From Gemmatimonadales bacterium (GTDB lineage Bacteria; Gemmatimonadota; Gemmatimonadetes; Gemmatimonadales; GWC2-71-9), in the NCBI GenBank assembly GCA_036002655.1, contig DASYTD010000139.1, forward strand, positions 1 through 62,478: 62,478 nt of DNA, in the 5' to 3' direction. This document shows, one piece after another, positions 1 through 34,087 of the stretch. The translations under genes were made by a program, and so were the position numbers. The stretch's first letter is position 1. Every line of letters begins with the position of its first letter. The notes under the pieces were generated by a model. That model did no database searches. It saw only the letters and a list, made by a program, of their open reading frames with translations, and was not told the DNA's origin.

Positions 1-167
1 CCTTTGAATGACAGTTCCGCAGTAACGATCTGGCCTACGGCAGGTTCGGTGCCTAGAAGGCTCCAAGCAAGACGACAAAGTTCGTCCTCAAGCTGGCTAA
101 AGTAGGCGGTGACCCTACCCAGAGCGGTGAGATGCTTGTCACTAACGGGGCTAGAAAGACTTGCCAT
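1..167 (-). CDS. partial hypothetical protein (first 55 codons; runs off the left window edge); candidate integron cassette ORF
   Basis: Own minus-strand translation: ATG at 165-167, then MASLSSPVSDKHLTALGRVTAYFSQLEDELCRLAWSLLGTEPAVGQIVTAELSFK with no stop to position 3. Missing from the ORF track only because it is truncated. Lies in the lower-GC left edge, co-oriented with intI. The ATG is 10 nt after a GTTAGGC box. Confidence 0.3.
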   Translation of the reverse strand, partial: MASLSSPVSDKHLTALGRVTAYFSQLEDELCRLAWSLLGTEPAVGQIVTAELSFK

Positions 168-177
168 CGTGGCGGCG

Positions 178-277
178 GCCTAACGTGAATTGGACATACC
201 TGTCTAAACTAAACTGCAAGCGTTCGTTCGCTACGTATGCTACATCCCTCAAGCTAGGTGCCTCTGGTTAGACAGGT
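178..277 (-). other. candidate integron recombination site (attI/attC-like)
   Basis: On the minus strand, GTCTAAC (273->267) fits RYYYAAC and GTTAGGC (184->178) fits GTTRRRY. ACCTGTCTAAC (277->267) can pair with GTT-T-AGACAGGT (209->198), leaving one bulged T. Lies 17-116 nt past the intI stop. Confidence 0.3.
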
Positions 278-293
278 CAGCCTAAACAAATTA

Positions 294-1268
294 TTACAGC
301 GTGTCTGCGGGGCTTCTAACGCCCATGCCTCCCCGATTGAGCACGTGCGTGTAAATCATCGTAGTGGCGACGTTGCGATGGCCCAGCAGCTCCTGCACCG
401 TACGGATATCGTAACCCGCTTCAAGCAGGTGAGTTGCAAACGAATGCCGCAGCGTGTGGCAGCTCGCCGCCTTCGGGATGCCGCTGGCCCGTAGCGCCTC
501 CTTGAAGGCCCGCTGCACCACCGTCTCGTGGAGGTGATGACGCCGCCGTTGACCGGTCTGCGGATCCGTGTACATACGACCCGCTGGAAAAACCCATTGC
601 CACGCCCATTCTCGGCCCGCATTCGGGTACTTGAGGAACAACGCCCCCGGCATCTCCACCCAACCGGCACCTGCCGCCAGGTCCCGCTCATGCTCCGTGC
701 GAACCTCGGCTAGGTGCTTCAACAACTGGCCCTTCAACCGCTCGGGCAACATCGTGCGGCGATCCCGATCGCCCTTGCCGCCCCGCACCGTGATCTCGTT
801 CGCCCCGAAGTCCACATCCTTCACCCGTAGGCGCAGCGCTTCGAGCAGGCGCATCCCCGTCCCATACAGTAGGGCGGTAATCAGCGCCGGCGCGCCTCGG
901 CCCCTCATCTGCGCGAACACCTTCCGCACTTCGTCTCGCGTGAATACGACCGGGACACGAACCGACTGCTTCGCCCGCACTAGCGTGGTTAACCAGCCCA
1001 CCGGCACCTGCAATACATCGCGATAGAGAAACATGATCGCCGCGAGCGCCTGGTTCTGCGTCGCTGCGCTGACCTTGCAGTCCACTGCCAAACTCGAGAG
1101 GAAACGGGTGACGTCGCCCACGCCCAGCTCGCGCGGATGACGCGTGCCACAGAAACGAATGAAGCGACGCACCCACTGAACGTACGCCTCCTCCGTCCGC
1201 GAACTGTAATGTCTGGTGCGAATGGCGACGCGCAGCTGCGTGAGTAATGGCGGGGCAGAGGAAGCCAT
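294..1268 (-). CDS. intI: integron integrase IntI (tyrosine recombinase)
   Basis: 324 aa. N-terminal core-binding motif [23 protein letters not shown]. Catalytic boxes [26 protein letters not shown] and [14 protein letters not shown]. Carries the IntI-specific insertion [21 protein letters not shown]...RRRHHLHE that XerC/D lack. Confidence 0.9.
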
Positions 1269-1347
1269 GTCGTACCGTAACCACGCGGGAGGAAAACGCG
1301 GTACCCAAAAAACTCAGCAGCGAGCGCCCCGGATCCTTATCAGCGCG

Positions 1348-1747: not shown

Positions 1748-2247
1748 CAGGGCAGCGACACCAAGAACCGGGCGGGGCGGACGTTCCCGTTCGCGGTGCT
1801 GCCTGCCCTGGCTAAGCTCCTCGATCGGCAGCGCGCGCTCGTGACGGCGCTCGAGCGGCAGCTCGGCCGCGTCACCCGCATGTGTTCGTCCGCGAGAGCG
1901 GGGCGCGGATCCGCAACTTCTACCACGCCTGGCACTCAGCCTGCGAGCGCGCGGCGGTGAAGCGCCGCGGCGCGATGGAGGTCTTTGAGCGACCCGAACT
2001 GCTCGGGCGGGTGCCTCACGACTTCCGCCGCACGGCCGTGCGGAACCTGGTACGCGCCGGCGTGCCTGAGCGGGTGGCGATGCAGCTGACGGGCCACAAG
2101 ACACGGGCGATCTTCGACCGCTACAACATCGTCAACGAGGCGGACCTGTCGGAGGGCGTGGAGAAGCTGGCCGCGTTCTTCGCGGGCGCCGGGCGGCCGG
2201 CGTCGAGGGGGACAATAGGGGGACAATTCGCCGCGGGAGGCATTTGA
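1748..2247 (+). pseudogene. phage/P4-type tyrosine integrase, N-terminally truncated and frameshifted
   Basis: Frame 2 (1748-1880) reads [43 protein letters not shown]. Frame 1 (1882-2247) continues [18 protein letters not shown]...[39 protein letters not shown] (the H-x-x-R ... Y catalytic end). The frames join only if one C is added to the CCC run at 1875-1877. About 200 N-terminal residues are absent. Ends 30 nt from the tRNA-Sec 3' end. Confidence 0.7.
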
Positions 2248-2277: not shown

Positions 2278-2371
2278 TGGCGGGAGCGTGTAGGAATCGA
2301 ACCTACCGAGCCCCGTTAGGGGCCCAAACAGTTTTGAAGACTGCTCAGGCCACCAGGCCCGATCCACTCCC
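2278..2371 (-). tRNA. selC: tRNA-Sec (selenocysteine, anticodon UCA), CCA encoded
   Basis: Reverse complement: GGGAGTGG AT CGGGCC-TGGT-GGCCTG A GCAGT-CTTCAAA-ACTGT TT GGGCCCC-TAAC-GGGGCTC G GTAGG-TTCGATT-CCTAC ACGCTCCC G CCA. Has a 6-bp D stem with 4-nt loop, a long 7-bp variable arm, an extended acceptor, U33-UCA-A37 and a length of 94 nt. These are bacterial tRNA-Sec hallmarks. Confidence 0.85.
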
Positions 2372-6276: not shown

Positions 6277-7299
6277 CTACCGCGTGGGTTGCGTCGCGCG
6301 AGGCGACGGTGAGGACGTCGGAGTCGCGGGGACGAACTGCGGCGTGGGTGCGCGGGACCCGAACGCTCGCGCGCCACGCGCATCCTCACCCGGCCAGCGC
6401 TTCTCGATCCACAGCAGCACGGGGGCCGCGATGTAGATCGACGAGAAGGTGCCGGTGAAGATGCCGAACGACATGACCCAGGCGAACGGCCGGATCACCT
6501 CGCCCGCGAGGAGCAGCAATGACAGCGTCGTCGCGATCGTGGTTCCGTGGGTCAGCACGGAACGCGGCAACGTCTCGCTGATCGAGAGGTTGAGAATCTC
6601 GTAGAGGTTTTGGCGCCGGTACTTGCGCAGGTTTTCGCGCACGCGGTCGAAGATGATGATCGTGTCGTTCAACGAGTAGCCCACGACCGTGAGTACCGCG
6701 CCGACGACGATGAGGCTGACCTCGAGGTGCATGACGCTGATGAACGCGATGGTGGCGACCACGTCGTGCGCCGTCGCGATGACCGCGGCGAGGCCGAAGC
6801 GCCACTCGAACCGGAACGCCAGATAGATCAGGGTGACGACGAAGCTCAGCAGGATCGCCAGCACCGCCTTGCCCTGCAGCTCCTGTCCGACTTTGGGGCT
6901 CACCGCGTCGCGGCGCACGATGGTGTACTGACCCGCCCCGACGCTCTGATCGAGTGCGCGACCGACCGCGGCGGCGACCGCCTGCGTGCTGGTCTCGTCG
7001 CTCGTACCAGCCGAATGCGCCAGACGCGCGCGGATCACATACGACGTATCGGAGCCGAACGTCTGAATTTCGGCGCCATTGAGGCCGACGTTGTCGAGCG
7101 CCGCCCGGATCTCGCCCATCCCGACCTGCTTGTGCGCCTCAACCTGGAGCAGCGTGCCGCCGGTGAACTCGATGCTGTAGTTGACGCCGCGCGTCAGCAG
7201 GAAGCCGAGCCCGACGAGCAGGATGGCGCCCGTGAGCGAGAACGCCCAGCGGCGCCATTTAATGAAGTCGTAGTTCGCGTTCGAAAAGAGTCTGATCAT
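6277..7299 (-). CDS. secF: protein translocase subunit SecF
   Basis: 340 aa. Multi-TM with the SecF pattern NYSIEFTGGT...GYSLNDTIIIFDRVREN. 1-nt TGATG junction with secD. Confidence 0.9.
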   Translation of the reverse strand: MIRLFSNANYDFIKWRRWAFSLTGAILLVGLGFLLTRGVNYSIEFTGGTLLQVEAHKQVGMGEIRAALDNVGLNGAEIQTFGSDTSYVIRARLAHSAGTSDETSTQAVAAAVGRALDQSVGAGQYTIVRRDAVSPKVGQELQGKAVLAILLSFVVTLIYLAFRFEWRFGLAAVIATAHDVVATIAFISVMHLEVSLIVVGAVLTVVGYSLNDTIIIFDRVRENLRKYRRQNLYEILNLSISETLPRSVLTHGTTIATTLSLLLLAGEVIRPFAWVMSFGIFTGTFSSIYIAAPVLLWIEKRWPGEDARGARAFGSRAPTPQFVPATPTSSPSPRATQPTR

Positions 7300-8921
7300 C
7301 AGATACTCAGGGTGACCATGTCGGGCCGCCGGTACAGCCAGATGAGGAACAACGTCTTCACGACGAAGATCGCGGAGATCATCGAGGCGGCGATACCGAT
7401 GATCAGCGTGATGGCGAAGCCCTGCACCGGGCCTGTCCCGACGGCATACAGAATGAGCGCGGTGAGGGCGGTGCTGACGTTCGAGTCCACGATGGCGTTC
7501 ATCGCATGCAGGAAGCCTTCATCGACGGCCAGCCGCAGCGACTTGCCGTGAACCAGCTCTTCACGAATGCGCTCGAAGATCAGCACGTTCGCATCTACCG
7601 CGATGCCGATGGACAGCACGAATCCCGCAAGGCCGGGCAGCGTCAGCGTGAAGCCGAACGCCGCCAATCCCGCCAGCGTGAACAGGCAGTAGAGGGTGAG
7701 TGCCGCGACGGCGAGGGCGCCCGCCATCCGGTAATAGCCGACCATGATCACGATCACCACGACGATGCCGACGACTCCGGCGATGATCCCGTCCTTGATG
7801 GAGTCGGCGCCGAGCGACGGGCCGATCGTGCGCTCTTCGACGATCGTGAGCGGCGCCGGCAGGGCGCCCGCCCGGAGCACCAGCGCCAGGTCGCTCGCTT
7901 CCTGGAGCGGCTTGGTGCCGAGCTCGATCTGCCCATTGGCGCCAATCTGACTGCGGATCACCGGCGGTTGACCCTGCACGCGGCCGTCCAAGATGATCGC
8001 CATGTAATCGCCGATGTGACGTGCGGTCTCCTGGGAGAACACGCGGGCGCCGCGGCGGCTGAGCTGGAAGGCGACGATGGACTGATTGGTCATCTGGTCG
8101 CGCCGGGCGACGGCCTTGATCAGCTCCTCGCCCGTGATGATGGGCCGCGAGTCGACGGCGTAGAGGGCGCGGTACGCGCGCGCCCCGCGCGATTCCGACT
8201 GCGCGCCCCACCGCAGCTCGACCCCGCGCGGCATCGCCGCGCGCACATCAGGCCGCTGAATCAGGCTGTCCACCAGCGGCCACTGCTCTTCGGGCACGAG
8301 GTACTCGCCGGCGAGCTGCCCCTGGAACAAGAGCGACGAGAGGACGCCGGGCGTGTTGGCATCCGCCGCCGAATCGCGAGCCGCTTTGCTCGTGTCGCCG
8401 CCGAACAGCTGGGCGACTGCGGAGGGCGCGGCGGCGCCGCGAGACTTGATGCCGGCGCGCCGCAGCGCGGCATCCATTTGCGGCAACGCGTCCTTGAACT
8501 GGTTCCGCATGTCCGTGATGCGAAACTCGAGGAACGCGGTGCGCTGGACGACGCTCTTGGCGCGCGCGGGATCTTTCTCGCCGGCGAGCTCGACGATAAG
8601 CCGGCAACGGCCCTGGATCTGAACCACAGGCTCCGTCGTGCCGAACTCGTCGATGCGCGTCCGCACCACGCGCTCCGCGCGCTGGATCGCATCGGCGCAA
8701 TCAGGGACCGGACCTTTGGACTGATCGACTTCGAGCGCCAGATGGATGCCGCCCTGGAGATCGAGTCCCAGGTTGATCGGCAGGCGCCGCACCGTCGTGT
8801 CCCGCATCCGGCCGGTGTTGGGGTCAATCACGCGCTGCTTGCTGTTGCGCGGCACGAGCGAGACGATGCTCGCCACGAGCAGTAACCCGATCACATACAG
8901 CCGCCGCCGAATCTTCTCCAT
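7299..8921 (-). CDS. secD: protein translocase subunit SecD
   Basis: 540 aa. Contains LGLDLQGGIHL and the C-terminal TM bundle IGIAVDANVLIFERIREE. Confidence 0.9.
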   Translation of the reverse strand: MEKIRRRLYVIGLLLVASIVSLVPRNSKQRVIDPNTGRMRDTTVRRLPINLGLDLQGGIHLALEVDQSKGPVPDCADAIQRAERVVRTRIDEFGTTEPVVQIQGRCRLIVELAGEKDPARAKSVVQRTAFLEFRITDMRNQFKDALPQMDAALRRAGIKSRGAAAPSAVAQLFGGDTSKAARDSAADANTPGVLSSLLFQGQLAGEYLVPEEQWPLVDSLIQRPDVRAAMPRGVELRWGAQSESRGARAYRALYAVDSRPIITGEELIKAVARRDQMTNQSIVAFQLSRRGARVFSQETARHIGDYMAIILDGRVQGQPPVIRSQIGANGQIELGTKPLQEASDLALVLRAGALPAPLTIVEERTIGPSLGADSIKDGIIAGVVGIVVVIVIMVGYYRMAGALAVAALTLYCLFTLAGLAAFGFTLTLPGLAGFVLSIGIAVDANVLIFERIREELVHGKSLRLAVDEGFLHAMNAIVDSNVSTALTALILYAVGTGPVQGFAITLIIGIAASMISAIFVVKTLFLIWLYRRPDMVTLSI

Positions 8922-8930
8922 CGCCTCTCT

Positions 8931-9842
8931 CTACCGGTTGAGGGTCGCCCGCGCCGCCTGGCGGTCGCGCTCGAGCTGCGCCACCAGCGCTTCGCGGGAC
9001 GGGAACGCCTGCACCGCGCGCAGGCGACGGACCCATTCCACGTCGACGGTCTTTCCGTACAGCTCGCCGTCGAAATCAAATAAATGCACTTCGAGTGTCC
9101 GCGCCTGCTCGCCGAACGTCGGCCGCGGCCCTTGGTTCATCATGCCGCCGTAGCGTTGCCCGTTTCCCGTTTCCGGTTTCCCGATGGTCACGCGCACCGC
9201 ATACACCCCGTCGGGCGGCAACAGTTTCCGGTCATCGGGCGGCTCCAGATTGATCGTCGGGACACCGATCGTCCGACCCCGACCCGCGCCCCGCACCACC
9301 GTGCCGCGGATCCCATAGGGGCGTCCCAACCACCGGGCCGCCGCATCGAGATCTCCGTGCGCCAACGCGGTGCGGATGAGCGTCGACGAGATCGGTTGTC
9401 CGTTCTGGCGGACCGCGTCCACGACCGCCATCGCAAAGCCCTGTGCCCGCGCCAACCGTTGCACCGAGTCCACATCGCCGGCGCGGCCACGGCCGAACCC
9501 GTGATCATACCCCATCACGAGCTCGCGCATCGCGTACTCATCACGCAGCCGGTGCACGAACGCCTCCGCGTCGAGCTGCGCCACCGCCGGCGTAAACGGC
9601 ATCACCACGAACTGCTCGATGCCCTGCGCCGCAACCAGCTCCCGCTTTTCTTCGGGCAGCGTCAGTAGCTTCGGCGCCGCCGCCGGATTCACTACGACGA
9701 GCGGATGCGGCTCGAACGTGACGAGCACGCTCGTCAACCCGTTCGCCCGCGCGCGCCGCGTCACCTCGGCGAGCACCGCCTGGTGCCCGCGGTGCACGCC
9801 ATCGAACGTACCGCATGTCACGACCGCGCCGGGGGGAGACAT
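8931..9842 (-). CDS. ribF: bifunctional riboflavin kinase / FAD synthetase
   Basis: 303 aa. Contains GTFDGVHRGHQ, and GRPYGIRGTVVRGAGRGRTIGVPTINL in the kinase half. Confidence 0.9.
   Translation of the reverse strand: MSPPGAVVTCGTFDGVHRGHQAVLAEVTRRARANGLTSVLVTFEPHPLVVVNPAAAPKLLTLPEEKRELVAAQGIEQFVVMPFTPAVAQLDAEAFVHRLRDEYAMRELVMGYDHGFGRGRAGDVDSVQRLARAQGFAMAVVDAVRQNGQPISSTLIRTALAHGDLDAAARWLGRPYGIRGTVVRGAGRGRTIGVPTINLEPPDDRKLLPPDGVYAVRVTIGKPETGNGQRYGGMMNQGPRPTFGEQARTLEVHLFDFDGELYGKTVDVEWVRRLRAVQAFPSREALVAQLERDRQAARATLNR
9162..9182. repeat. heptamer array GTTTCCC/GTTTCCG/GTTTCCC (3 units) inside ribF
   Basis: Direct reading. Same unit as the arrays at 47601-47737. Encodes GKPETGN in a RibF loop. 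Confidence 0.8.
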
Positions 9843-10684
9843 TAGGCTTCCGCCACCACCACGCGCGGCTTCAGAAGGTCGCCTACCTGCTCCGCCACGG
9901 CCAGCAGCTCAGCACCCGAAAACAGCGCTATCGGGTATCGGCTATCGGCTACGAGGTCGCTCGTGATCGGGCGACCGTGCACCACGGCGTCCCTCTCCTT
10001 CTTATCTAGCTCGCGGCGCGGCAGATGCGCGACCAGGATCGCCGCATCCTGCAACGCGCCCGGCGTGACCGCTTCGGGCGCGACCGCATCTGCCAGGCGA
10101 AGCGGCCCGACGGCGGTGCGCCGCAATGCCGTCAGATGCGCGCCGCATCCCAGCGCGGCGCCGATATCCCGCGCCAGGGACCGGAGGTACGTCCCGGCGC
10201 TCACCGTCGCCCGGAACTGCAGATCGGGCACGGCCGCCTCGACGATCTCGAGCTCCGAGATTTCGACCCGGCGCGGCTCCGGTGCGACCGCTTCGCCGCG
10301 CCGCGCGCGCCGGTACGCGCGCTCGCCCGCGATCTTCACCGCCGAATACGCCGGCGGCCGCTGCTCGTAACCGCCGCGGAAGCTGCCGATCACGGCGGCG
10401 AGCTGCGCCGGCGTGACGCCGGTCCACGGCGCCGTGGCCACCACCGCTCCGGTGGCGTCGTCCGTGTCGGTCGTGACGCCGAGCCGGATCACCCCTTCGT
10501 ACGACTTGGGCCACTCCGCGGCGAACGGCGCGAGCCGCGTCGCCCGTCCCACGACGAGGACCAGCAGTCCTTTGGCGAACGGATCCAGCGTCCCCAGATG
10601 GCCGACGCGCTGTTCGCCGAGCGCGCGACGGACGATGTCCACGACATCATGGGACGTGGGGCCGGCCGGTTTGGCCACCAACAC
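9842..10684 (-). CDS. truB: tRNA pseudouridine(55) synthase TruB
   Basis: 280 aa. GTG start. Contains KPAGPTSHDVV and GHLGTLDPFAKGLLVL. Confidence 0.9.
   Translation of the reverse strand: MLVAKPAGPTSHDVVDIVRRALGEQRVGHLGTLDPFAKGLLVLVVGRATRLAPFAAEWPKSYEGVIRLGVTTDTDDATGAVVATAPWTGVTPAQLAAVIGSFRGGYEQRPPAYSAVKIAGERAYRRARRGEAVAPEPRRVEISELEIVEAAVPDLQFRATVSAGTYLRSLARDIGAALGCGAHLTALRRTAVGPLRLADAVAPEAVTPGALQDAAILVAHLPRRELDKKERDAVVHGRPITSDLVADSRYPIALFSGAELLAVAEQVGDLLKPRVVVAEA
9908..9952. repeat. ~45-nt repeated element with CTATCGG-type heptamers (copy 1, inside the truB 3' part)
   Basis: ctcagcacccgaaaacagcgctatcgggtatcggctatcggctac. About 84% identical (32/38 by hand alignment) to 14010-14055. Confidence 0.7.
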
Positions 10685-10698
10685 GAGTCCCCCGTCCT

Positions 10699-11055
10699 TC
10701 AGTCGTCCGACTCCTTGAGCTCCTTCAGAACGCGGTCGATGCGCTGCGCATGCTCGATGCCGCGGTCCAGATGAAAGTGCAGCTCCGGACTGGTCCGCAG
10801 GTGCAGCTCGTTCGAGAGCTGCGCGCGTAGATAGCGCGCGGCACTCGCCAATCCCTCGAGCGACTTGGCCTTTTCTTCTTCCGAACCCATCACGCTGACC
10901 CGCACGTTGGCGTGCGACAAGTCGGGCGACACCTCGACCCCGATGACCGTCACGAATCCGATCCGCGGGTCTCGGACGTCGCTCGTGAGGAACGCACCGA
11001 CGGCCTGGCGCACCACCTCGCCGACGCGCTCGGGACGATGCCGGTGACGTTTCAT
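10699..11055 (-). CDS. rbfA: ribosome-binding factor A
   Basis: Start trimmed to the internal ATG (MKRHRHRPERVGEVVRQAV...), because the longer ORF overlaps the upstream DUF503 gene. RbfA-like pattern DPRIGFVTVIGVEVSPDLSHANV. Confidence 0.85.
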   Translation of the reverse strand: MKRHRHRPERVGEVVRQAVGAFLTSDVRDPRIGFVTVIGVEVSPDLSHANVRVSVMGSEEEKAKSLEGLASAARYLRAQLSNELHLRTSPELHFHLDRGIEHAQRIDRVLKELKESDD

Positions 11056-11056
11056 C

Positions 11057-11338
11057 TCAGAGATAGCTCGTGCTGGTGTCCACGATGCGCGCGCCATCCG
11101 CTCCGGCGACCAACTGATCCGCCTCGCGCAGCACGCTTTCGGCATGGCGGCGGTCGGTGCTCACGACGGCGGCCGTCAGCTCCGCGCGCTGCCAGAGCTC
11201 GTGATGCCCCGTCTCGGCGACCGACACGTTGAAGCGGTTATGCATCCGATCCTTCAGGCTCTTGACGATCGTGCGCTTGTCCTTGAGTGACTGGCACGCC
11301 GGCAGATGCAGCTCCCACACCATCACACCGACGATCAC
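11057..11338 (-). CDS. DUF503 (YlxP-like) protein
   Basis: 93 aa ([22 protein letters not shown]...). Sits in the conserved position between infB and rbfA. GTGA overlap with the infB stop. Confidence 0.75.
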   Translation of the reverse strand: MIVGVMVWELHLPACQSLKDKRTIVKSLKDRMHNRFNVSVAETGHHELWQRAELTAAVVSTDRRHAESVLREADQLVAGADGARIVDTSTSYL

Positions 11339-14010
11339 GACTCAGCGGCGCTGAGCGAGCGGGCGACCTCCTCGATGCGGTATGATTCGATCAGATCGCT
11401 GACCTTGACGTCGTTGAAGTTCTCGATGCCGATGCCGCACTCGAAGCCCTCGCGGACCTCGCGCACGTCGTCCTTGAACCGTTTCAACGACGACAGCGTG
11501 CCATCGTACACCTCGACACCGTTGCGGATCACGCGCACGCGCCCCGTCCGCGGGATGACACCGCTGCGCACGAAGCATCCGGCGATCGTTCCCACCTTGG
11601 CGATCTTGAACGTCTGGCGCACTTCGGCCTCGCCCAGCACGACTTCCTTCTTCTCGGGCGCGAGCAGGCCTTCCATGGCCGACTTCACCTCTTCGACCGC
11701 CTCGTAGATGATGCGGTAGGTGCGGATTTCCACCCGCTCGCGATCCGCCGCCGCGCGCGCGTTGGAATCGGGGCGCACGTGGAAGCCCACGATGATCGCG
11801 CCCGAAGCCCGCGCCAGCAGCACGTCCGATTCCGTGATCGCGCCGACGCCGCGGTGCACGATCTCGACTTTCACCTCGGCCGTCGAGAGCTGCGCCAGCG
11901 CGTCGGCCAGTGCCTCGGCCGGACCGCCCTGATCGGCCTTGATGATGATGCGCAACGTCGCGACCCCGCCCGCCGCCGCTTCGGACATGAAGTCTTCGAG
12001 CGTCTTGACCCGCCCCGAACGGCGATGCTGCGCTTCGCGCTCGAGCCGCTGGCGCTTCTGCGCGATGTCGCGCGCCGCGGCCGCATCGTCCATCGCGAGG
12101 AAGCTGTCCCCCGCTTCCGGCACACCCTCGAAGCCGAGGATCTGCACCGGCGTGGAGGGTCCGACTTCGGTTTCCGTGCCGCCCCGCTCGTCGTACATGG
12201 CGCGGACGCGGCCGGAGTACTGCCCGCAGATGAAGTCGTCGCCCACGCGCAGCGTGCCGTTCTGAACCAGGATCGTCGCGAGCGCGCCCTTGCCGGGATC
12301 GAGCGACGCCTCGAGCACGGTCCCTTGCGCGCGGCGCTCGGGATTCGCCTTGAGATCGAGCAGCTCGGCTTGGAGCAGGATCTGCTCCTGGAGCTCTTCG
12401 ACGTTCGTGCCCTTCTTGGCGGAGATCGGCGTCGCCAGCGTGGTACCGCCGAACTCCTCGAGCACGACGCCGTGCGACAGGAGATCCTGCTTCACCTTCT
12501 GCACGTTGGCGCTAGGGAGGTCGATCTTGTTGATCGCGACCACGAGGGGCACGCCGGCGTTCTTGGCGTGCGAGATCGCCTCGATCGTCTGCGGCATGAT
12601 CGCGTCGTCGGCGGCCACGACCAGCACGACGATGTCGGTGACCTGCGCGCCGCGGGCGCGCATGGCGGTGAATGCCTCGTGCCCCGGGGTGTCGAGGAAC
12701 GTGATGCGGCGGCCGTCCTTCCGCGTGACCTGATACGCACCGATGTGTTGCGTGATGCCTCCGGCCTCACCGGCGACGACGTTCGTCTTGCGGATGTAGT
12801 CGAGAAGGGAGGTCTTGCCGTGGTCCACGTGACCCATGATCGTGACGACCGGCGGCCGCGGCTTGAGCGTCTCCGCGGCATCCGTGGTCACCTCGGTCTG
12901 GGTGGTGGCGTACTCCTCTTCACGCACGGCCTGGAACCCGAACGCCGACGCGATCAGCTCGATCATGTCGAAGTCGAGCCGCTGGTTGATCGTCACCATC
13001 TGCCCCAGCTCCTTGAAGGCGAAGGTGACGATCTGCGTCGGCGGGACTTTGAGCGTGCTCGCCAGCTCGGAAACGGTGACGAACTCCGTCACGCGCACCA
13101 GCGTCTTTTCGCGCTCGCGCTCCTCGCGGCGGCGCTCTTCCTGAACCTCGCGGAAGGTCGGGCCTTCCTCGCGGCGGTGGACGCCCTTCTTGCCGACCGG
13201 GGCCTTCAGCGTCGCGAGCGTGCGCGAAATGTTTTGCGCGACGGCTTCCTGATCCACCAGGGACTTCTTGCCCTTCTTGCGCTTCTTGCCCTTCTCGCGG
13301 CGCCGCTCGTCGAGCGGCGGTGCGCCAGGCGCGGCGGAGGCGACCGGCCGCGGCGGAACAGCGCCGCCGGGACCTGACGGTGTCGCGCGCGCGACAGGAC
13401 GCGGACGAACGGGCGTCGGAATGAACGGCCGCGGGGGGGGCGCGGACGGTGCGCCGGGGGGCGCCGTAAACGCCGGCGCCGCCGGGGCGGCGGAGGGCGG
13501 CGCCGGAGCGAATGTCAGACTTGCGGCGGGCGCCGGTGCCTCAGCCGGTTCTGCCGGCGCGAGATCCTTGAACAGCGCCGCAGCGCGTTCCTCGAGTGAG
13601 GCGGCGGGACGCTCTTCTTCTTGCTCGCGCGCGGCCGTCTCGAGGGCCAGGCGCGCGATTTCCGCCGCGGCGGCTTCCTCAGCGGCCGCTTCTGCGGCAG
13701 CGGCATCGGCGGCGGCAACTTCGGCGGCGGTGCGGCGGCGGCGCTTCGGACGGCTGTCACCCGCAACGACCGGCTCCGGCACCGGCTCGAGAATCTTGGC
13801 CGCGGCGCGGCGCCGTTTCGGCGGCGTCGACGGCTGTTTCTGCTTGCGCTTGTCGCGCTCCCAGCGCGCGCGCATCAGCGACACTTGCTCGTCCTTGAGC
13901 GGCGTCAGGTGACTGCGCACGAAGATGTCCATCTCCTTGAGCATGCCCATCAGCTGCTCGCTGGAGATCCCGAACTCTGCCGCTAAGTCATGAATCCGCG
14001 TCGTTGCCAC
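11335..14010 (-). CDS. infB: translation initiation factor IF-2
   Basis: 891 aa. Ala/Pro-rich N-terminal region, G domain [12 protein letters not shown]...DTPGHEAF...NKID. GTG start preceded by GGAGGA. Confidence 0.95.
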
Positions 14011-23950: not shown

Positions 23951-26208
23951 GCACCCTCTCCCTCCCAGTCGCGCTCGAGGCCCGCGTAGGCCACGAGCAA
24001 TTGCTTTGTCCCGATGTCCGGATCGTCGAAGTCCACGCTCACACGCAGGTCCCGGCCTTCGCCCGAGACTGCGCGGACGATGCCACCGCCAAACTTGCGG
24101 TGGCGAACCCGTTCCCCTTTCACGTAGCGAGGCGCGTCCTGCGACACTTCCTCAGGAAATCCGATGTCCGGCGGCAAGCGCCTCGCCGCGGCGCCACGGG
24201 GGCGTGACGCGCGCGGAGGCATTGCTCCCGACGTCCCTCGTACGGGCCGCCACGACGGCGTCGTACTCCGTTCCTCGACGACGTGCGGCGGCAGTGCATC
24301 GAGAAAGCGCGACGGCTCCGCCAGCTCCAACCGTCCGTTGCGGTAGCGCGTGCGCGCCCATGAGAGATACAACCTTTCGCGCGCGCGCGTGAGACCCACG
24401 TAACAGAGTCGTCGCTCCTCCTCGACGCCGCCCGGCTCGTTGGCCGCGCGACCGAGCGGGAACAATCCATCTTCGAGACCCGCGAGTGCGACGATCGGCC
24501 ACTCGAGACCCTTCGCCATGTGCGCGGTGAGCAGCGTGACGCCCGGCTCGTCGCGATCTTCGTCCGCCGGTGTGACGAGCGCCGCCTGCGTGAGGTAGCG
24601 CTCCACCGGACTGCCGCCGTTTTCGGCGGCATCGGGGTCCTGCACCTCGGCCCACGCCGCCGCGCCGGCCACCAACTCCCGCACGTTTTCGATCCGCTCC
24701 ATCCCCTCCGCGCCTTCCTCGGCCAGATACTGCTCGTAGCCCGTGGTGGCGAGGATGGTCTCGAGTGCGGTGGCGGGGTCCGCCTGCCCCACCGCCTCGC
24801 GCAGCCGGTCCAGCAGCGACGCTACGCCGACGAGCGCCTCGCGCACGTTGGGGCGCAGCTCGGTCATGCTGGGGGCGCGACGCGCGGCCTCCAGCAGCGG
24901 CTTCTGCCACCCCATCGCGGTCCGGCCCACCACCGCGAGCGACGCATCCCCGATTCCGCGCCGGGGCACGTTGACCACTCGGAGGAAGGCCTCATCGTCA
25001 GCCGGGTTGGCGATCAGGCGCAGATAGGCCAGCAGATCCTTGACCTCCCGCCGCTCGTAGAAGCTGATCGCGCCGATCAGGCGGTACGGGATGCCCCGGA
25101 AGCGGAATGCCTCTTCGAGCGGCCGGGACTGGGCATTGGTGCGGTATAAAATCGCCATCTCGTCGTAGGCGACGTCGTCGTCCGCAGCCCGCCTGGTGAA
25201 CTCGTTGGCCAGCCACTCGGCCTCGTCGCGCTCGTCGGCCGTGCTGAGCAGCGTGACCGGGGCTCCGCCTTTCTTCTCGGTGAACAGCGTCTTCCCGAGC
25301 CTAGCGGTGTTCTCCGCAATGATCCCATTGGCGGCGTCGAGGATCACCTGGGTAGACCGGTAGTTCTGCTCGAGCCGGACCAGCTTCGTGCCGGGAAAGT
25401 CCTCCTCAAATGCGAGCATGTGACGCACGTCGGCCCCGCGCCAGCCGTAGATCGCCTGATCGTCGTCTCCCACGACGCAGAGATTGCCGTGCCGCTTGGC
25501 CAGATGCTTCACGAGCAGGTACTGCGCCGCATTCGTGTCCTGAAACTCATCCACGAGGACGTGCTGAAACCGGTCCTGCCAGTAGGCGAGCCGCTCGGGA
25601 TGCTCGCGGAAGAGCGTGAGCGGGTGAAGCAGCAGGTCGTCGAAATCCATCGCATTGGCCTGCTGCAAGGCGGGCCCGAGCGCCGCGTAGATGTCAGCCG
25701 CCACCTTGACGAGCGGGGTGTCCGCTTGCGCGCCCAATTCCTCGGGCAGCAGCATGCGGTTCTTGGCGCTCGAAATCACCGCGTGCACGGTCCGGGGCGG
25801 GTACGCCTTGGGCGATAGCTGGCGCGCCTCGAGGAGGCGCCTGACCAGCGCCTCGGAGTCGTCTGCGTCGTAGATCGTGAAGTTCGGCCCGAATCCCAGC
25901 AGCGGCGACTCGCGGCGCAGCAAGCGGGCCGATAAAGAATGAAACGTGCCGATCCAGAGCCCGCGGGGATCGGAGCCCAGCAGCTGCGCGATGCGGGTGC
26001 GCATCTCCCCCGCCGCTTTGTTCGTGAACGTCACCGCGAAGATCCGCTGCGGCGCGACGCCGAGTTGTGTGATGAGCTGCGCGATTCGCGCCGTGAGCAC
26101 GCGCGTCTTGCCTGATCCGGCTCCGGCGAGCACGAGGAGCGGACCGCCTGGATGCTCCACCGCCTCCCGCTGCGCGGGATTCAACGGCAACGGAGGCGAT
26201 GCCGTCAT
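23947..26208 (-). CDS. ATP-dependent DNA helicase, UvrD/PcrA family
   Basis: Start set to MTASPPLPLNPAQREAV...AGAGSGKT (ATGA overlap with the kinase stop). The 42-codon upstream extension in the track overlaps the kinase gene. Helicase motifs FTNKAAGEM, VDEFQDTN and TAHMAKGLEW. Confidence 0.9.
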   Translation of the reverse strand: MTASPPLPLNPAQREAVEHPGGPLLVLAGAGSGKTRVLTARIAQLITQLGVAPQRIFAVTFTNKAAGEMRTRIAQLLGSDPRGLWIGTFHSLSARLLRRESPLLGFGPNFTIYDADDSEALVRRLLEARQLSPKAYPPRTVHAVISSAKNRMLLPEELGAQADTPLVKVAADIYAALGPALQQANAMDFDDLLLHPLTLFREHPERLAYWQDRFQHVLVDEFQDTNAAQYLLVKHLAKRHGNLCVVGDDDQAIYGWRGADVRHMLAFEEDFPGTKLVRLEQNYRSTQVILDAANGIIAENTARLGKTLFTEKKGGAPVTLLSTADERDEAEWLANEFTRRAADDDVAYDEMAILYRTNAQSRPLEEAFRFRGIPYRLIGAISFYERREVKDLLAYLRLIANPADDEAFLRVVNVPRRGIGDASLAVVGRTAMGWQKPLLEAARRAPSMTELRPNVREALVGVASLLDRLREAVGQADPATALETILATTGYEQYLAEEGAEGMERIENVRELVAGAAAWAEVQDPDAAENGGSPVERYLTQAALVTPADEDRDEPGVTLLTAHMAKGLEWPIVALAGLEDGLFPLGRAANEPGGVEEERRLCYVGLTRARERLYLSWARTRYRNGRLELAEPSRFLDALPPHVVEERSTTPSWRPVRGTSGAMPPRASRPRGAAARRLPPDIGFPEEVSQDAPRYVKGERVRHRKFGGGIVRAVSGEGRDLRVSVDFDDPDIGTKQLLVAYAGLERDWEGEGA

Positions 26209-32237: not shown

Positions 32238-34087
32238 GCGAAGGACAGCAGCGCTACCGCAGGCTCGGAAAATACGAGCTGCATCAGCTGCTCGGTGAAG
32301 GTGCGATGGGCATCGTGTGGAAGTCGTACGACACGGTGCTGCGGCGCTACGTGGCGCTGAAGTTGTTGAGCAGCAGCTTCCGCAAGACGCAGGACATGCA
32401 GGAGCGGTTCCTGCGCGAGGCGCGCGCCGCCGGCGCCATCCAACACGCCAACATCGTCACCGTCTACGACCTCGGCGAGGCCGAAGGACAGCTCTATATC
32501 GCCATGGAGCTAGTCGAGGGTCGCGATCTCGCCGACATGATCGCGCTGCGCGATCCGCTCGCGCTCGAGCGCAAGCTCGACATCACGATCGAAGTCCTGG
32601 CCGGCTTGCACTTCGCCCATCAGCGTGGCGTGATTCATCGCGACGTCAAGCCGTCGAACGTGCGCGTGATGCCGGACGGCCGCGTCAAGATCATGGACTT
32701 CGGCATTGCGCGCCTCCAGAAGGCGGACGCGACCGGCTCCGGCGCGATCGTGGGCACGCCGACGTACATGGCGCCCGAGCAAATCACCAACGGCGCGATC
32801 ACGGCGGCGACAGACGTCTTCTCCGTCGGCTGCATGCTCTACGAGCTGCTGTCCTACCAGCGGCCGTTCGAGGCCGAGTCGGTCCACGGCGTGCTGTATC
32901 AGGTGCTGACAACTGAACCGCGCGCGCTGCGCACGGTGGCCCCGTCCATTCCCGCGGCGCTCGAGCGCGTCGTGGCCAAGGCGATGAACAAGGTGCCGCA
33001 CGAGCGCTACGAGTCCGCGGGCCAGATGATGTCCACGCTGCAGCAGATCCGCTCGGCCTTGTCAGGCGCGGACGACGAGGCCACGCAGCCGCTGGGCCGC
33101 TGGACGCCGCTGCCCAGGCCCGTGCTGAAGCTGATCACTCATGCGTCGATGCGTGCGCGGCTCGCGGTGCTGGGCGCGCTCGCCGCGGTCGTCGTGCTGC
33201 TGCTCTACGCGCCGGGCCAGCCCATCGCCGACGAATCGAGTGAGCTGCGTGCGAATCCTCCGGCCGCGGCGCCCAGCGGCCTCGCCGCGCCGCCGTCTCT
33301 TCCCGATGCAGTGCCGGTTTCCTTGGCGGTCAGCACGCGGCGCGATTCGGCCCTTGCGGCGCGCGACCGCGCCGTCGCGGCCGGAGCACTCAAGAACAGC
33401 GTTCCCGCGATGATCCTCGCGGAGACGATGTTCCAGGCGTCCGAGCAAGCGCTGCAAGCCGGCGACCAGTCGCGCGCGCTGCGCGGCTACTTCGAGGCGG
33501 TGCAGCAGTATGGCCGGGCGCGCGATGAGGCGAGGGCGATGGATCGAGAAGCGCAGCGCATGGTGCAGCGCGTGACGCCGGTCGTGCAGGCCATTCCCAC
33601 GGGACCGGCGGCCGCCAATGCGGCGATTTTCCTGGCGCGCGCCGAATCGCTGCTCCGCGAGCAGGATTTCACGCTCGCCAAAGTCGCCGCGCAGAGTGCC
33701 GAGCAGATCGGCATCGATGTCGGCATGGCCCCGCCCAGCCCGCAGCCGCCGGAGGCGCGCGACGCGGTCACCGTCTTACTCGACGACTTGGGGCGAGCCC
33801 TCGCAAGCCAGCGCATCGCCAATCTGCGGGTGCTGTACCCGGGTCTGACCGACGAGGAGCGGCGCGGCTGGGAGGCGTTCTTCCGCGACTGGAATCAGAT
33901 CACCGCAAAGTTCACGATCGAGGACTTCAAGCTGCAGGGCGCGACCGCCATGGGGAACGTGCGCGCGATGTTTCAGTACGTCCCGGCACGCGGCGGCGCG
34001 CCCCGCCTGGACCGGCGGCGCTTCGCGATGCGCTTCGAGCGGAAAGACGTAGGCTGGAGGCTAGCTGGGGTATCGGAATTGAAATGA
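32234..34087 (+). CDS. Hanks-type serine/threonine protein kinase with TM segment and extracytoplasmic C-terminal region
   Basis: 617 aa. Kinase motifs GEGAMGIV, VALK, HRDVKPSN, DFGIA and GTPTYMAPE. TM segment LAVLGALAAVVVLLLY. The C-terminal end looks NTF2/SnoaL-like. Confidence 0.9.
   Translation: MSEGQQRYRRLGKYELHQLLGEGAMGIVWKSYDTVLRRYVALKLLSSSFRKTQDMQERFLREARAAGAIQHANIVTVYDLGEAEGQLYIAMELVEGRDLADMIALRDPLALERKLDITIEVLAGLHFAHQRGVIHRDVKPSNVRVMPDGRVKIMDFGIARLQKADATGSGAIVGTPTYMAPEQITNGAITAATDVFSVGCMLYELLSYQRPFEAESVHGVLYQVLTTEPRALRTVAPSIPAALERVVAKAMNKVPHERYESAGQMMSTLQQIRSALSGADDEATQPLGRWTPLPRPVLKLITHASMRARLAVLGALAAVVVLLLYAPGQPIADESSELRANPPAAAPSGLAAPPSLPDAVPVSLAVSTRRDSALAARDRAVAAGALKNSVPAMILAETMFQASEQALQAGDQSRALRGYFEAVQQYGRARDEARAMDREAQRMVQRVTPVVQAIPTGPAAANAAIFLARAESLLREQDFTLAKVAAQSAEQIGIDVGMAPPSPQPPEARDAVTVLLDDLGRALASQRIANLRVLYPGLTDEERRGWEAFFRDWNQITAKFTIEDFKLQGATAMGNVRAMFQYVPARGGAPRLDRRRFAMRFERKDVGWRLAGVSELK

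Follow-up and report, generated by a model that had tools for sequence, protein, structure and literature searches.

A very probable reverse integron platform, with attI and the first cassette downstream of intI, in a soil Gemmatimonadales bacterium

In class 1 integrons the attachment site attI1 and the gene cassettes lie upstream of the integrase gene and are divergent from it, and the cassette promoter (Pc) is located inside intI1. Chlorobi and planctomycetes are said, following Boucher et al. 2007, to fall within an inverted integrase group. This 'inverted integrase group', whose representatives in Treponema denticola are also called 'reverse' or 'unusual' integrons, is the one in which intI is co-directional with the cassettes (PMC3575428; PMC4909258; PMC7691350; PMC9668308), and it was found to be paraphyletic by Cury et al. 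2016 (PMC4889954). Gemmatimonadota and Acidobacteriota are among the phyla from which integrons are reported (PMC8618304). The present analysis concerns an integron at one end of contig DASYTD010000139.1 (assembly GCA_036002655.1) of a Gemmatimonadales bacterium. The complete contig of 62,478 nt is referred to as the window, and its position 1 is a contig end that falls 177 nt into the first cassette. The locus is very probably a reverse (inverted) integron platform, in which the promoter region, intI, attI and the first cassette follow one another on one strand. Its layout is of the known 'reverse integron' kind and does not represent a new type of system.

The closest described counterpart is T. 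denticola's reverse integron, in which intI likewise points in the direction of the cassettes, attI lies past the 3' end of intI and carries an R box with a GTT junction, and a chromosomal array holds small open reading frames (ORFs) of mostly unknown function (PMC4909258; PMC7691350). The two differ in that the host here is a high-G+C soil bacterium whose integrase groups with Gemmatimonadales integrases, and in that a putative Pc is annotated between intI and the first cassette of T. denticola, whereas none was recognised here.

The integrase gene occupies positions 294..1268 on the minus strand and encodes a protein of 324 aa. In a profile search this protein matched TIGR02249, 'integron integrase', with 443.6 bits against a cutoff of 265, and VchIntIA (PDB 2A3V) aligned with it over the full length at 283 bits. 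Alignment to VchIntIA showed the catalytic set R140, K165, H271, R274, H297 and Y306 to be complete, and the IntI-specific insertion corresponds to residues 209-229 (21 aa). IntI is a tyrosine recombinase with the additional IntI domain and is intact, as the initial annotation of this DNA, made from the letters of the window, had proposed for the 324-aa ORF. The score against the class 1 equivalog model NF011946 was 348 bits, under the 435-bit cutoff. The gene terminates in a double stop, TAATAA (296-291, minus strand), and an identical protein is encoded on five other metagenome contigs.

All five of these contigs lose homology to the window exactly at position 178, which is the last base of a GTTAGGC heptamer (184-178, minus strand). 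After GTTAGGC the window continues with CGCCGCCACGATGGCAAG, contig L001 with AGCGCGATGGCTCAAT and contig L003 with AGCGCATC, giving three distinct continuations of one attI; that of L001 is the same as in the near-identical contig L142 described below. Metagenome contigs were also scanned with the last 20 nt of attI, which returned 54 loci from soil metagenomes. When the loci were oriented alike, 48 distinct 20-mers followed GTTAGGC in 53 of them, and an ORF of at least 50 codons opened within 60 nt in 40 of 46 first cassettes. The motif GTTRRRY has a frequency of 0.58 per kb on both strands, so that one copy in 116 nt is not improbable in itself; the GTTAGGC site is nevertheless more than a chance match because the break point at 178 is shared and 48 continuations were found in 53 loci. 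The region 178-293 is an attI with a GTTAGGC junction to many different cassettes.

Two further observations were made on these junctions. Many first-cassette ORFs (L006-L059) begin 6-16 nt past GTTAGGC, which leaves no space for a Shine-Dalgarno sequence and suggests that translation of first cassettes is independent of such a sequence or coupled. Contig L012 (3097-3560) has the attI junction twice, in inverted copies whose arrays mirror each other; this palindrome is probably an artefact of assembly.

What lies beyond the junction is best seen in L142, a contig of 5,706 nt and a member of the 90% IntI cluster. It is 99.76% identical to window positions 2707-175, a match that spans the end of an M23 peptidase gene, a tRNA-Sec gene, gene fragments, intI and attI, and its integrase shares 322 of 324 residues with that of the window. 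Past GTTAGGC it carries six small genes, all co-directional and each with an attC behind it that scores 76-111 bits on the intI strand; the product of one of these cassettes is a CdiI_3 immunity protein. The array had been expected to lie to the left of the window, and this is where the near-identical locus carries its six attC-bounded cassettes. Across related loci GTTAGGC returns every 300-800 bp, each time behind a conserved stretch some 90 nt long with the consensus GCCTAAC-AAGCGCTTGAAGCTGrCGGCGCGCG...CGCGCCGCAGCTTAAGCGCGAtyC-GTTAGGC. In 91 cassettes from these loci (median 543 bp) the longest ORF ran the same way as intI in 79 cases and against it in 9. The arrays hold at least 6-10 cassettes and have a G+C content of 0.59-0.60, compared with 0.676 for the genome. 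The inverted orientation, with an att site and the first cassette past the 3' end of intI, had been read from the window by the initial annotation; the break at 178, the L142 array and the prevailing co-directionality of the cassettes all bear it out.

The attC sites of the family are homogeneous and covary. Mean column identity was 73% among 46 non-redundant sites, and of the 23 pairs in their consensus fold, 8 show compensatory changes. Rfam held no family matching attC, its sole match in the window being tRNA-Sec, and the covariance model was therefore derived solely from the family's own attC sites; it was used in place of a first heuristic finder, which was blind to strand, R'' and R' being perfectly complementary. 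About 100 attC sites scored 55-113 bits on the intI strand (most about 105-113) and 24-36 bits on the opposite strand, and the highest-scoring strand was the intI strand in all loci of the family. Folded as single-stranded DNA, attC gave z-scores of -5.2 and -5.6. On the 3' arm of the bottom strand two bases bulge out singly, C and C, 6 nt apart. In attC-aadA7 the 3' arm is the canonical place of the extrahelical bases, which are T and G there; the bulged C/C of this family (for example L142 2836-2925) differ from them. Weak matches to the model in the window at 32653-32755, 25839-25929 and 8956-9025 (14-18 bits, E = 0.01-0.2) are G+C-rich, lie far from the integron and were taken as noise.

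The whole attI region was delimited by an alignment of 43 variants as positions 178..293 on the minus strand, 116 nt between TAATAA and the first cassette, with a G+C content of 0.457. The G+C of 1-300 is 0.517 against 0.676 for the whole window, in agreement with an earlier hand count of about 52%. The R box is GTTAGGC at 178..184 on the minus strand, placed as the recombination point by the divergence of related contigs, and the same heptamer closes every attC of the family. The simple site of attI1 has L and R boxes 4-5 bp apart (PMC12614218), and attI1 carries the direct repeats DR1 and DR2 in addition (PMC10500605; PMC12614218). By analogy, GTCCAAT at 189..195 on the minus strand, inverted relative to R and 4 nt away from it, is a putative L box; it sits within the 20-nt search pattern. 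Direct-repeat motifs resembling IntI boxes, GTTTAGTTTAGAC(AGG), occupy 199..214 on the minus strand (GTTTAGTTTAGACAGG from 214 to 199) and are, by their conservation, candidate accessory integrase-binding sites like DR1 and DR2; GGTTAtTTTAGACAGG, which falls outside the search pattern, is kept in nearly all 43 variants. A conserved block next to intI, at 266..287 on the minus strand, consists of GTTTAGGC (287-280), a 6-nt spacer and an inverted GTCTAAC (273-267), and GTTTAGGCTGACCAGCCTAAy stands right behind the intI stop in about 40 of the 43 variants. Both minus-strand boxes named in the initial annotation, GTCTAAC and GTTAGGC, are present. From the likeness to attI1 we infer that the conserved blocks are repeated IntI-box-like motifs (TTAGrC and its inverse), which would make up an L/R simple site with predicted accessory binding sites.

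The upstream end of the platform is marked by a loss of similarity between lineages at window positions 1244-1315, about 45 nt upstream of the intI start, which leaves a common module of about 1.14 kb (178-1315). A putative intI promoter region at 1274..1315 on the minus strand was delimited in an alignment of 17 lineages; it comprises GAGTTTTTTGGGTAC (1315-1301) and a -10-like TACGGT (1279-1274), which lies 5 nt ahead of the intI ATG. This putative promoter may give a leaderless intI mRNA or one with a very short leader. A generic sigma-70 scan of 1-1600 gave nothing at 1274-1315. Across the 17 lineages a motif GnGTTTTTTsGGTAC is kept together with TAYnGT 5-10 nt before the intI start.

The layout suggests how such a platform would work. 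The order is intI (1268-294, minus strand), a 116-nt double-stranded attI (293-178) and the cassette from 183 leftwards. IntI would bind the box repeats of the duplex attI and would recombine the folded bottom strand of an attC, carried by a circular cassette, with GTTAGGC at 184-178. New cassettes would enter directly behind the G, with cleavage at G184/T183 assumed from established integron biochemistry, and would accumulate downstream of intI with their ORFs co-directional. The scan of 1-1600 found no sigma-70-like promoter and no terminator-like site in 178-293. Neither a promoter nor a terminator was detectable in the interval from intI to cassette 1, so that co-transcription of the first cassettes with intI would be most likely.

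The window's own first cassette is represented by its 5' part, at 1..177 on the minus strand (G+C 0.559), and formally starts with TTAGGC at 183-178. The ATG that had been noted 10 nt past GTTAGGC is at 167-165 and opens an ORF of 55 codons that leaves the contig end. The 55-aa fragment had no homologue, no Pfam family and no match in any fetched locus. In six soil runs (X1-X6), window positions 1-185 were found in a unitig of 542-615 nt in which an attC-like sequence, GGATGCGCGTAAGCTGCGGCGCGC..., replaces attI; this unitig reaches about 336 nt past window position 1. The attI and attC contexts of the cassette have only 8 nt in common, GCCTAACG. If the join in the window is genuine, the same cassette stands at attI and within an array, which would be direct evidence of cassette movement.

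Several observations weigh against a working platform in this strain or against the window as its witness. No Pc was recognised, there being no sigma-70-like match from the 3' part of intI to the cassette, in a phylum whose promoter consensus is poorly known. The window itself contains no attC, since the contig stops inside cassette 1. The join 177|178 was spanned by no contig in eight public Logan run assemblies, in which contigs lose rare variants and show presence, not absence; what the window shows as its first cassette could therefore be an arrangement present in a minority or, with less likelihood, a join made in assembly. Finally, among related loci whose upstream DNA extends for 1.2 kb or more, about one third have lost intI mostly or wholly. 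In these (L013, L019, L026, L028, L033, L034, L038, L039, L042, L049, L054 and L057) the deletion ends near the intI stop codon, and both the cassette array and the 3' part of attI are retained. Because of these losses, it is clear that such platforms do decay.

With this decay in view, it was considered whether the layout is real and the integron a fossil in this strain, the diversity behind attI recording old events in different strains. This is unlikely. The truncation or loss of intI in related loci, the promoter that was not predictable in the scan of 1-1600 and an adjacent island that has clearly decayed would all be expected of a fossil. An ORF of full length with every catalytic residue in place would not, nor would contigs at least 99.7% identical over the shared region that carry three different first cassettes behind the same attI, nor the presence of the window's cassette in an attC context in other samples. 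Taken together, the three first cassettes on one attI and the attC context of the cassette indicate recent movement.

It is slightly less probable still that the terminal 177 nt were joined to the contig by an assembler error, in which case the window would show only intI and attI. The failure of any Logan contig to span 177|178, and the six runs in which the cassette unitig runs into attC, are what such an error would produce; the 8 shared nt (GCCTAACG) are far too few for a k-mer assembler to make the join without spanning reads. The main conclusion of a reverse platform is untouched by this question, as it rests on L142 and the other loci.

The third explanation concerns the nature of 178-277, which might be an attC, intact or decayed, that recombines in folded single-stranded form, the locus then having no true attI. 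The stretch is bounded by GTCTAAC (273-267) and GTTRRRY (184-178), which are 96 nt apart and give it an attC-like size, and a box spacing of 95-96 nt is seen again in other variants. It also contains the 10-11-bp inverted repeat with one extra base on which the initial annotation had remarked, CCTGTCTAACC (276-266) against GTTTAGACAGG (209-199), the 266-287 block holding the 5' arm and 199-214 the 3' arm. The covariance model, by contrast, gave 178-277 no more than 8.1 bits on the minus strand and 7.0 bits on the plus strand, with the end heptamers alone aligning, against 55-113 bits for genuine sites. Fold z-scores relative to shuffled sequence were near chance at -1.1 and -0.8, and the R box was unpaired. 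The arms are fully complementary in the variant of the window's lineage only; 7-8 of 9 positions pair in 34 of the 43 variants, without compensatory change. Moreover, the stretch stays fixed beside intI while everything beyond it varies. An attC at 178-277 was rejected on these grounds and is very improbable, and a conserved hairpin within attI was likewise rejected, since each arm is kept independently. The 11-bp repeat with a bulged base thus stands as described, and the attC-like folding attributed to it does not. The initial annotation had also held that the absence of a covariance score for 178-277 would overturn the integron; about 8 bits were obtained, yet that rule would wrongly reject the finding, for the region is an attI.

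The last explanation, a classical integron that lost its upstream attI and array by deletion as the tRNA-Sec island decayed, with GTTAGGC present by chance and the downstream ORF an ordinary gene, can practically be dismissed: the DNA upstream of intI does hold just fragments, among them a recombinase remnant and an RnfD-like remnant, and GTTRRRY does occur by chance (0.58 per kb), but no GTTRRRY is found upstream in 1269-2277 on either strand, as had been noted before, homology between lineages runs from about 45 nt before the ATG down to GTTAGGC, 48 different sequences stand behind the box, L142 and about 35 loci have their attC arrays downstream, on the intI strand, and no attC upstream of and divergent from intI was found in the family's loci.

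A tRNA-Sec gene at 2278..2371 on the minus strand was identified with ARAGORN and Rfam (RF01852, 80.5 bits), and its 3' end is the boundary of the variable segment. Abutting this end, at 1882..2247 on the plus strand, is a C-terminal remnant of a second tyrosine recombinase of the island integrase type, matching positions 110-170 only of PF00589 (E = 6.9e-7), and an RnfD-like fragment adjoins the tRNA-Sec 3' end region. The earlier claim that 1269-2277 holds only gene fragments agrees with these remnants. Judged by their similarity and position, the upstream fragments are what is left of a putative island at the 3' end of tRNA-Sec. A short tandem repeat at 1355-1420, made up of about 8 copies of GTCAGCCC, is found just upstream of the putative intI promoter, and in the sister lineage L018 a 21-nt x 15 tandem array stands at the equivalent place (2583-2969).

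A haplotype that lacks the integron segment was found in contig L141, which is 99.87% identical to window positions 9022-2278 and diverges exactly at the tRNA 3' end. Past the divergence (6746-12712) it encodes, as core-like genes, three ORFs of about 114-119 aa (one a weak zinc-ribbon match), a DAGK-family kinase and glutamate racemase, and it contains no attC. Another contig, L140, ends at 2278. Position 2278 is spanned by unitigs in four runs and by L142, and the join there is therefore real. In sister lineages, with integrases 75-90% identical, the flank consists of rtcB, a class II aminoacyl-tRNA synthetase gene, which we take to be asnS, and a 21-nt tandem array; tRNA-Sec was absent from the sister-lineage loci. 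The location is thus not the fixed, vertically inherited one that defines a sedentary integron, the segment standing at tRNA-Sec here and at rtcB/asnS in the sisters and missing from L141. No repeat of the tRNA-Sec 3' end, as would mark the far end of an island, was found in the window, the contig stopping before that end, and no locus was found that joins the array to the right flank of L141. A strain-variable integron segment bounded by tRNA-Sec fits with carriage on an island that has since decayed. That the whole reverse integron was cargo of an island integrated at the tRNA-Sec 3' end, moved horizontally and not sedentary, is possible, with the balance somewhat against it.

The relationships of the integrase were examined beyond the family. 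The best matches in species-representative genomes were 65-67% identical and came from metagenome-assembled genomes (MAGs) of Armatimonadota, Gemmatimonadales and Acidobacteria; no synteny with the window was found in the named MAGs. The integrase of a Klebsiella locus, which is presumably IntI1, was 59% identical. Orientation was surveyed by running the attC model on the closest 80 IntI relatives (L060-L139). In these, matches downstream of intI were all on the + strand and matches upstream all on the - strand, with + strand matches also upstream of intI in L132; the best match to the model outside the family was in L061 (72.8 bits). About 26 loci were inverted, from Gemmatimonadales, Acidobacteriota, Eisenbacteria, Coriobacteriia, Chloroflexia and others, and 8 were classical, from Betaproteobacteria, Methylobacter, Gallionella, Crenothrix, Verrucomicrobiae and Calditrichia. 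MAGs of Gemmatimonadales and Acidobacteriota share a layout of intI stop, 85-250 nt and GTTAGGC, followed in Gemmatimonadales by a short leader and an ATG. In a rough neighbour-joining tree of IntI, midpoint-rooted and drawn without outgroup or support values, the window's family falls inside a Gemmatimonadales cluster whose members are all inverted where this can be determined, and a single other subtree holds all the classical loci. The window's IntI does not look like an outlier and appears to group with Gemmatimonadales integrases. By this tree and by the attC similarity to L061, Gemmatimonadota is the probable phylum of the host. A limited literature search, which is weak evidence, found no description of this orientation pattern in these phyla.

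Set beside class 1 integrons, the locus shares the recombinase subfamily (348 bits to NF011946 and 59% identity to the presumed IntI1). The GTTAGGC box is common to both, as is, in all likelihood, an L/R simple site with extra direct-repeat boxes (PMC10500605; PMC12614218). It differs in that everything lies downstream of intI and is co-directional with it, there is no Tn402 or plasmid context, and the attC sites are homogeneous. With the Vibrio cholerae superintegron it has in common a chromosomal setting, highly homogeneous attC sites, arrays of at least 6-10 cassettes, an immunity-type cassette gene (CdiI_3) and an integrase similar over its full length to VchIntIA. The present locus departs from it in its orientation, in a location that varies between this lineage (tRNA-Sec) and its sisters (rtcB/asnS), and in that a 99.87%-identical haplotype is without the whole segment.

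The population data alone defined attI at single-nucleotide resolution, through 48 alternative first cassettes behind one fixed box. Accounts of reverse integrons usually treat them as a peculiarity of Treponema and a small number of further taxa. Among the closest 80 relatives with detectable attC, the split between about 26 downstream, co-directional loci and 8 classical ones follows the integrase tree, and for Gemmatimonadota, Acidobacteriota and several further phyla the inverted layout may be the norm. If it is, the textbook divergent layout would belong mainly to a branch of Proteobacteria and Verrucomicrobia. If the split holds with proper rooting, annotation pipelines and PCR primers that presuppose a divergent intI would systematically overlook soil integrons or read them in the wrong orientation. 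Co-directional cassettes would, in addition, turn joint transcription with intI into a widespread mode of regulation. Movement of entire integrons from one chromosomal site to another in these phyla is suggested by the tRNA-Sec boundary and the 'empty' haplotype, and carriage on an island, if true, would mean that an integron had moved horizontally in a soil phylum outside the Proteobacteria.

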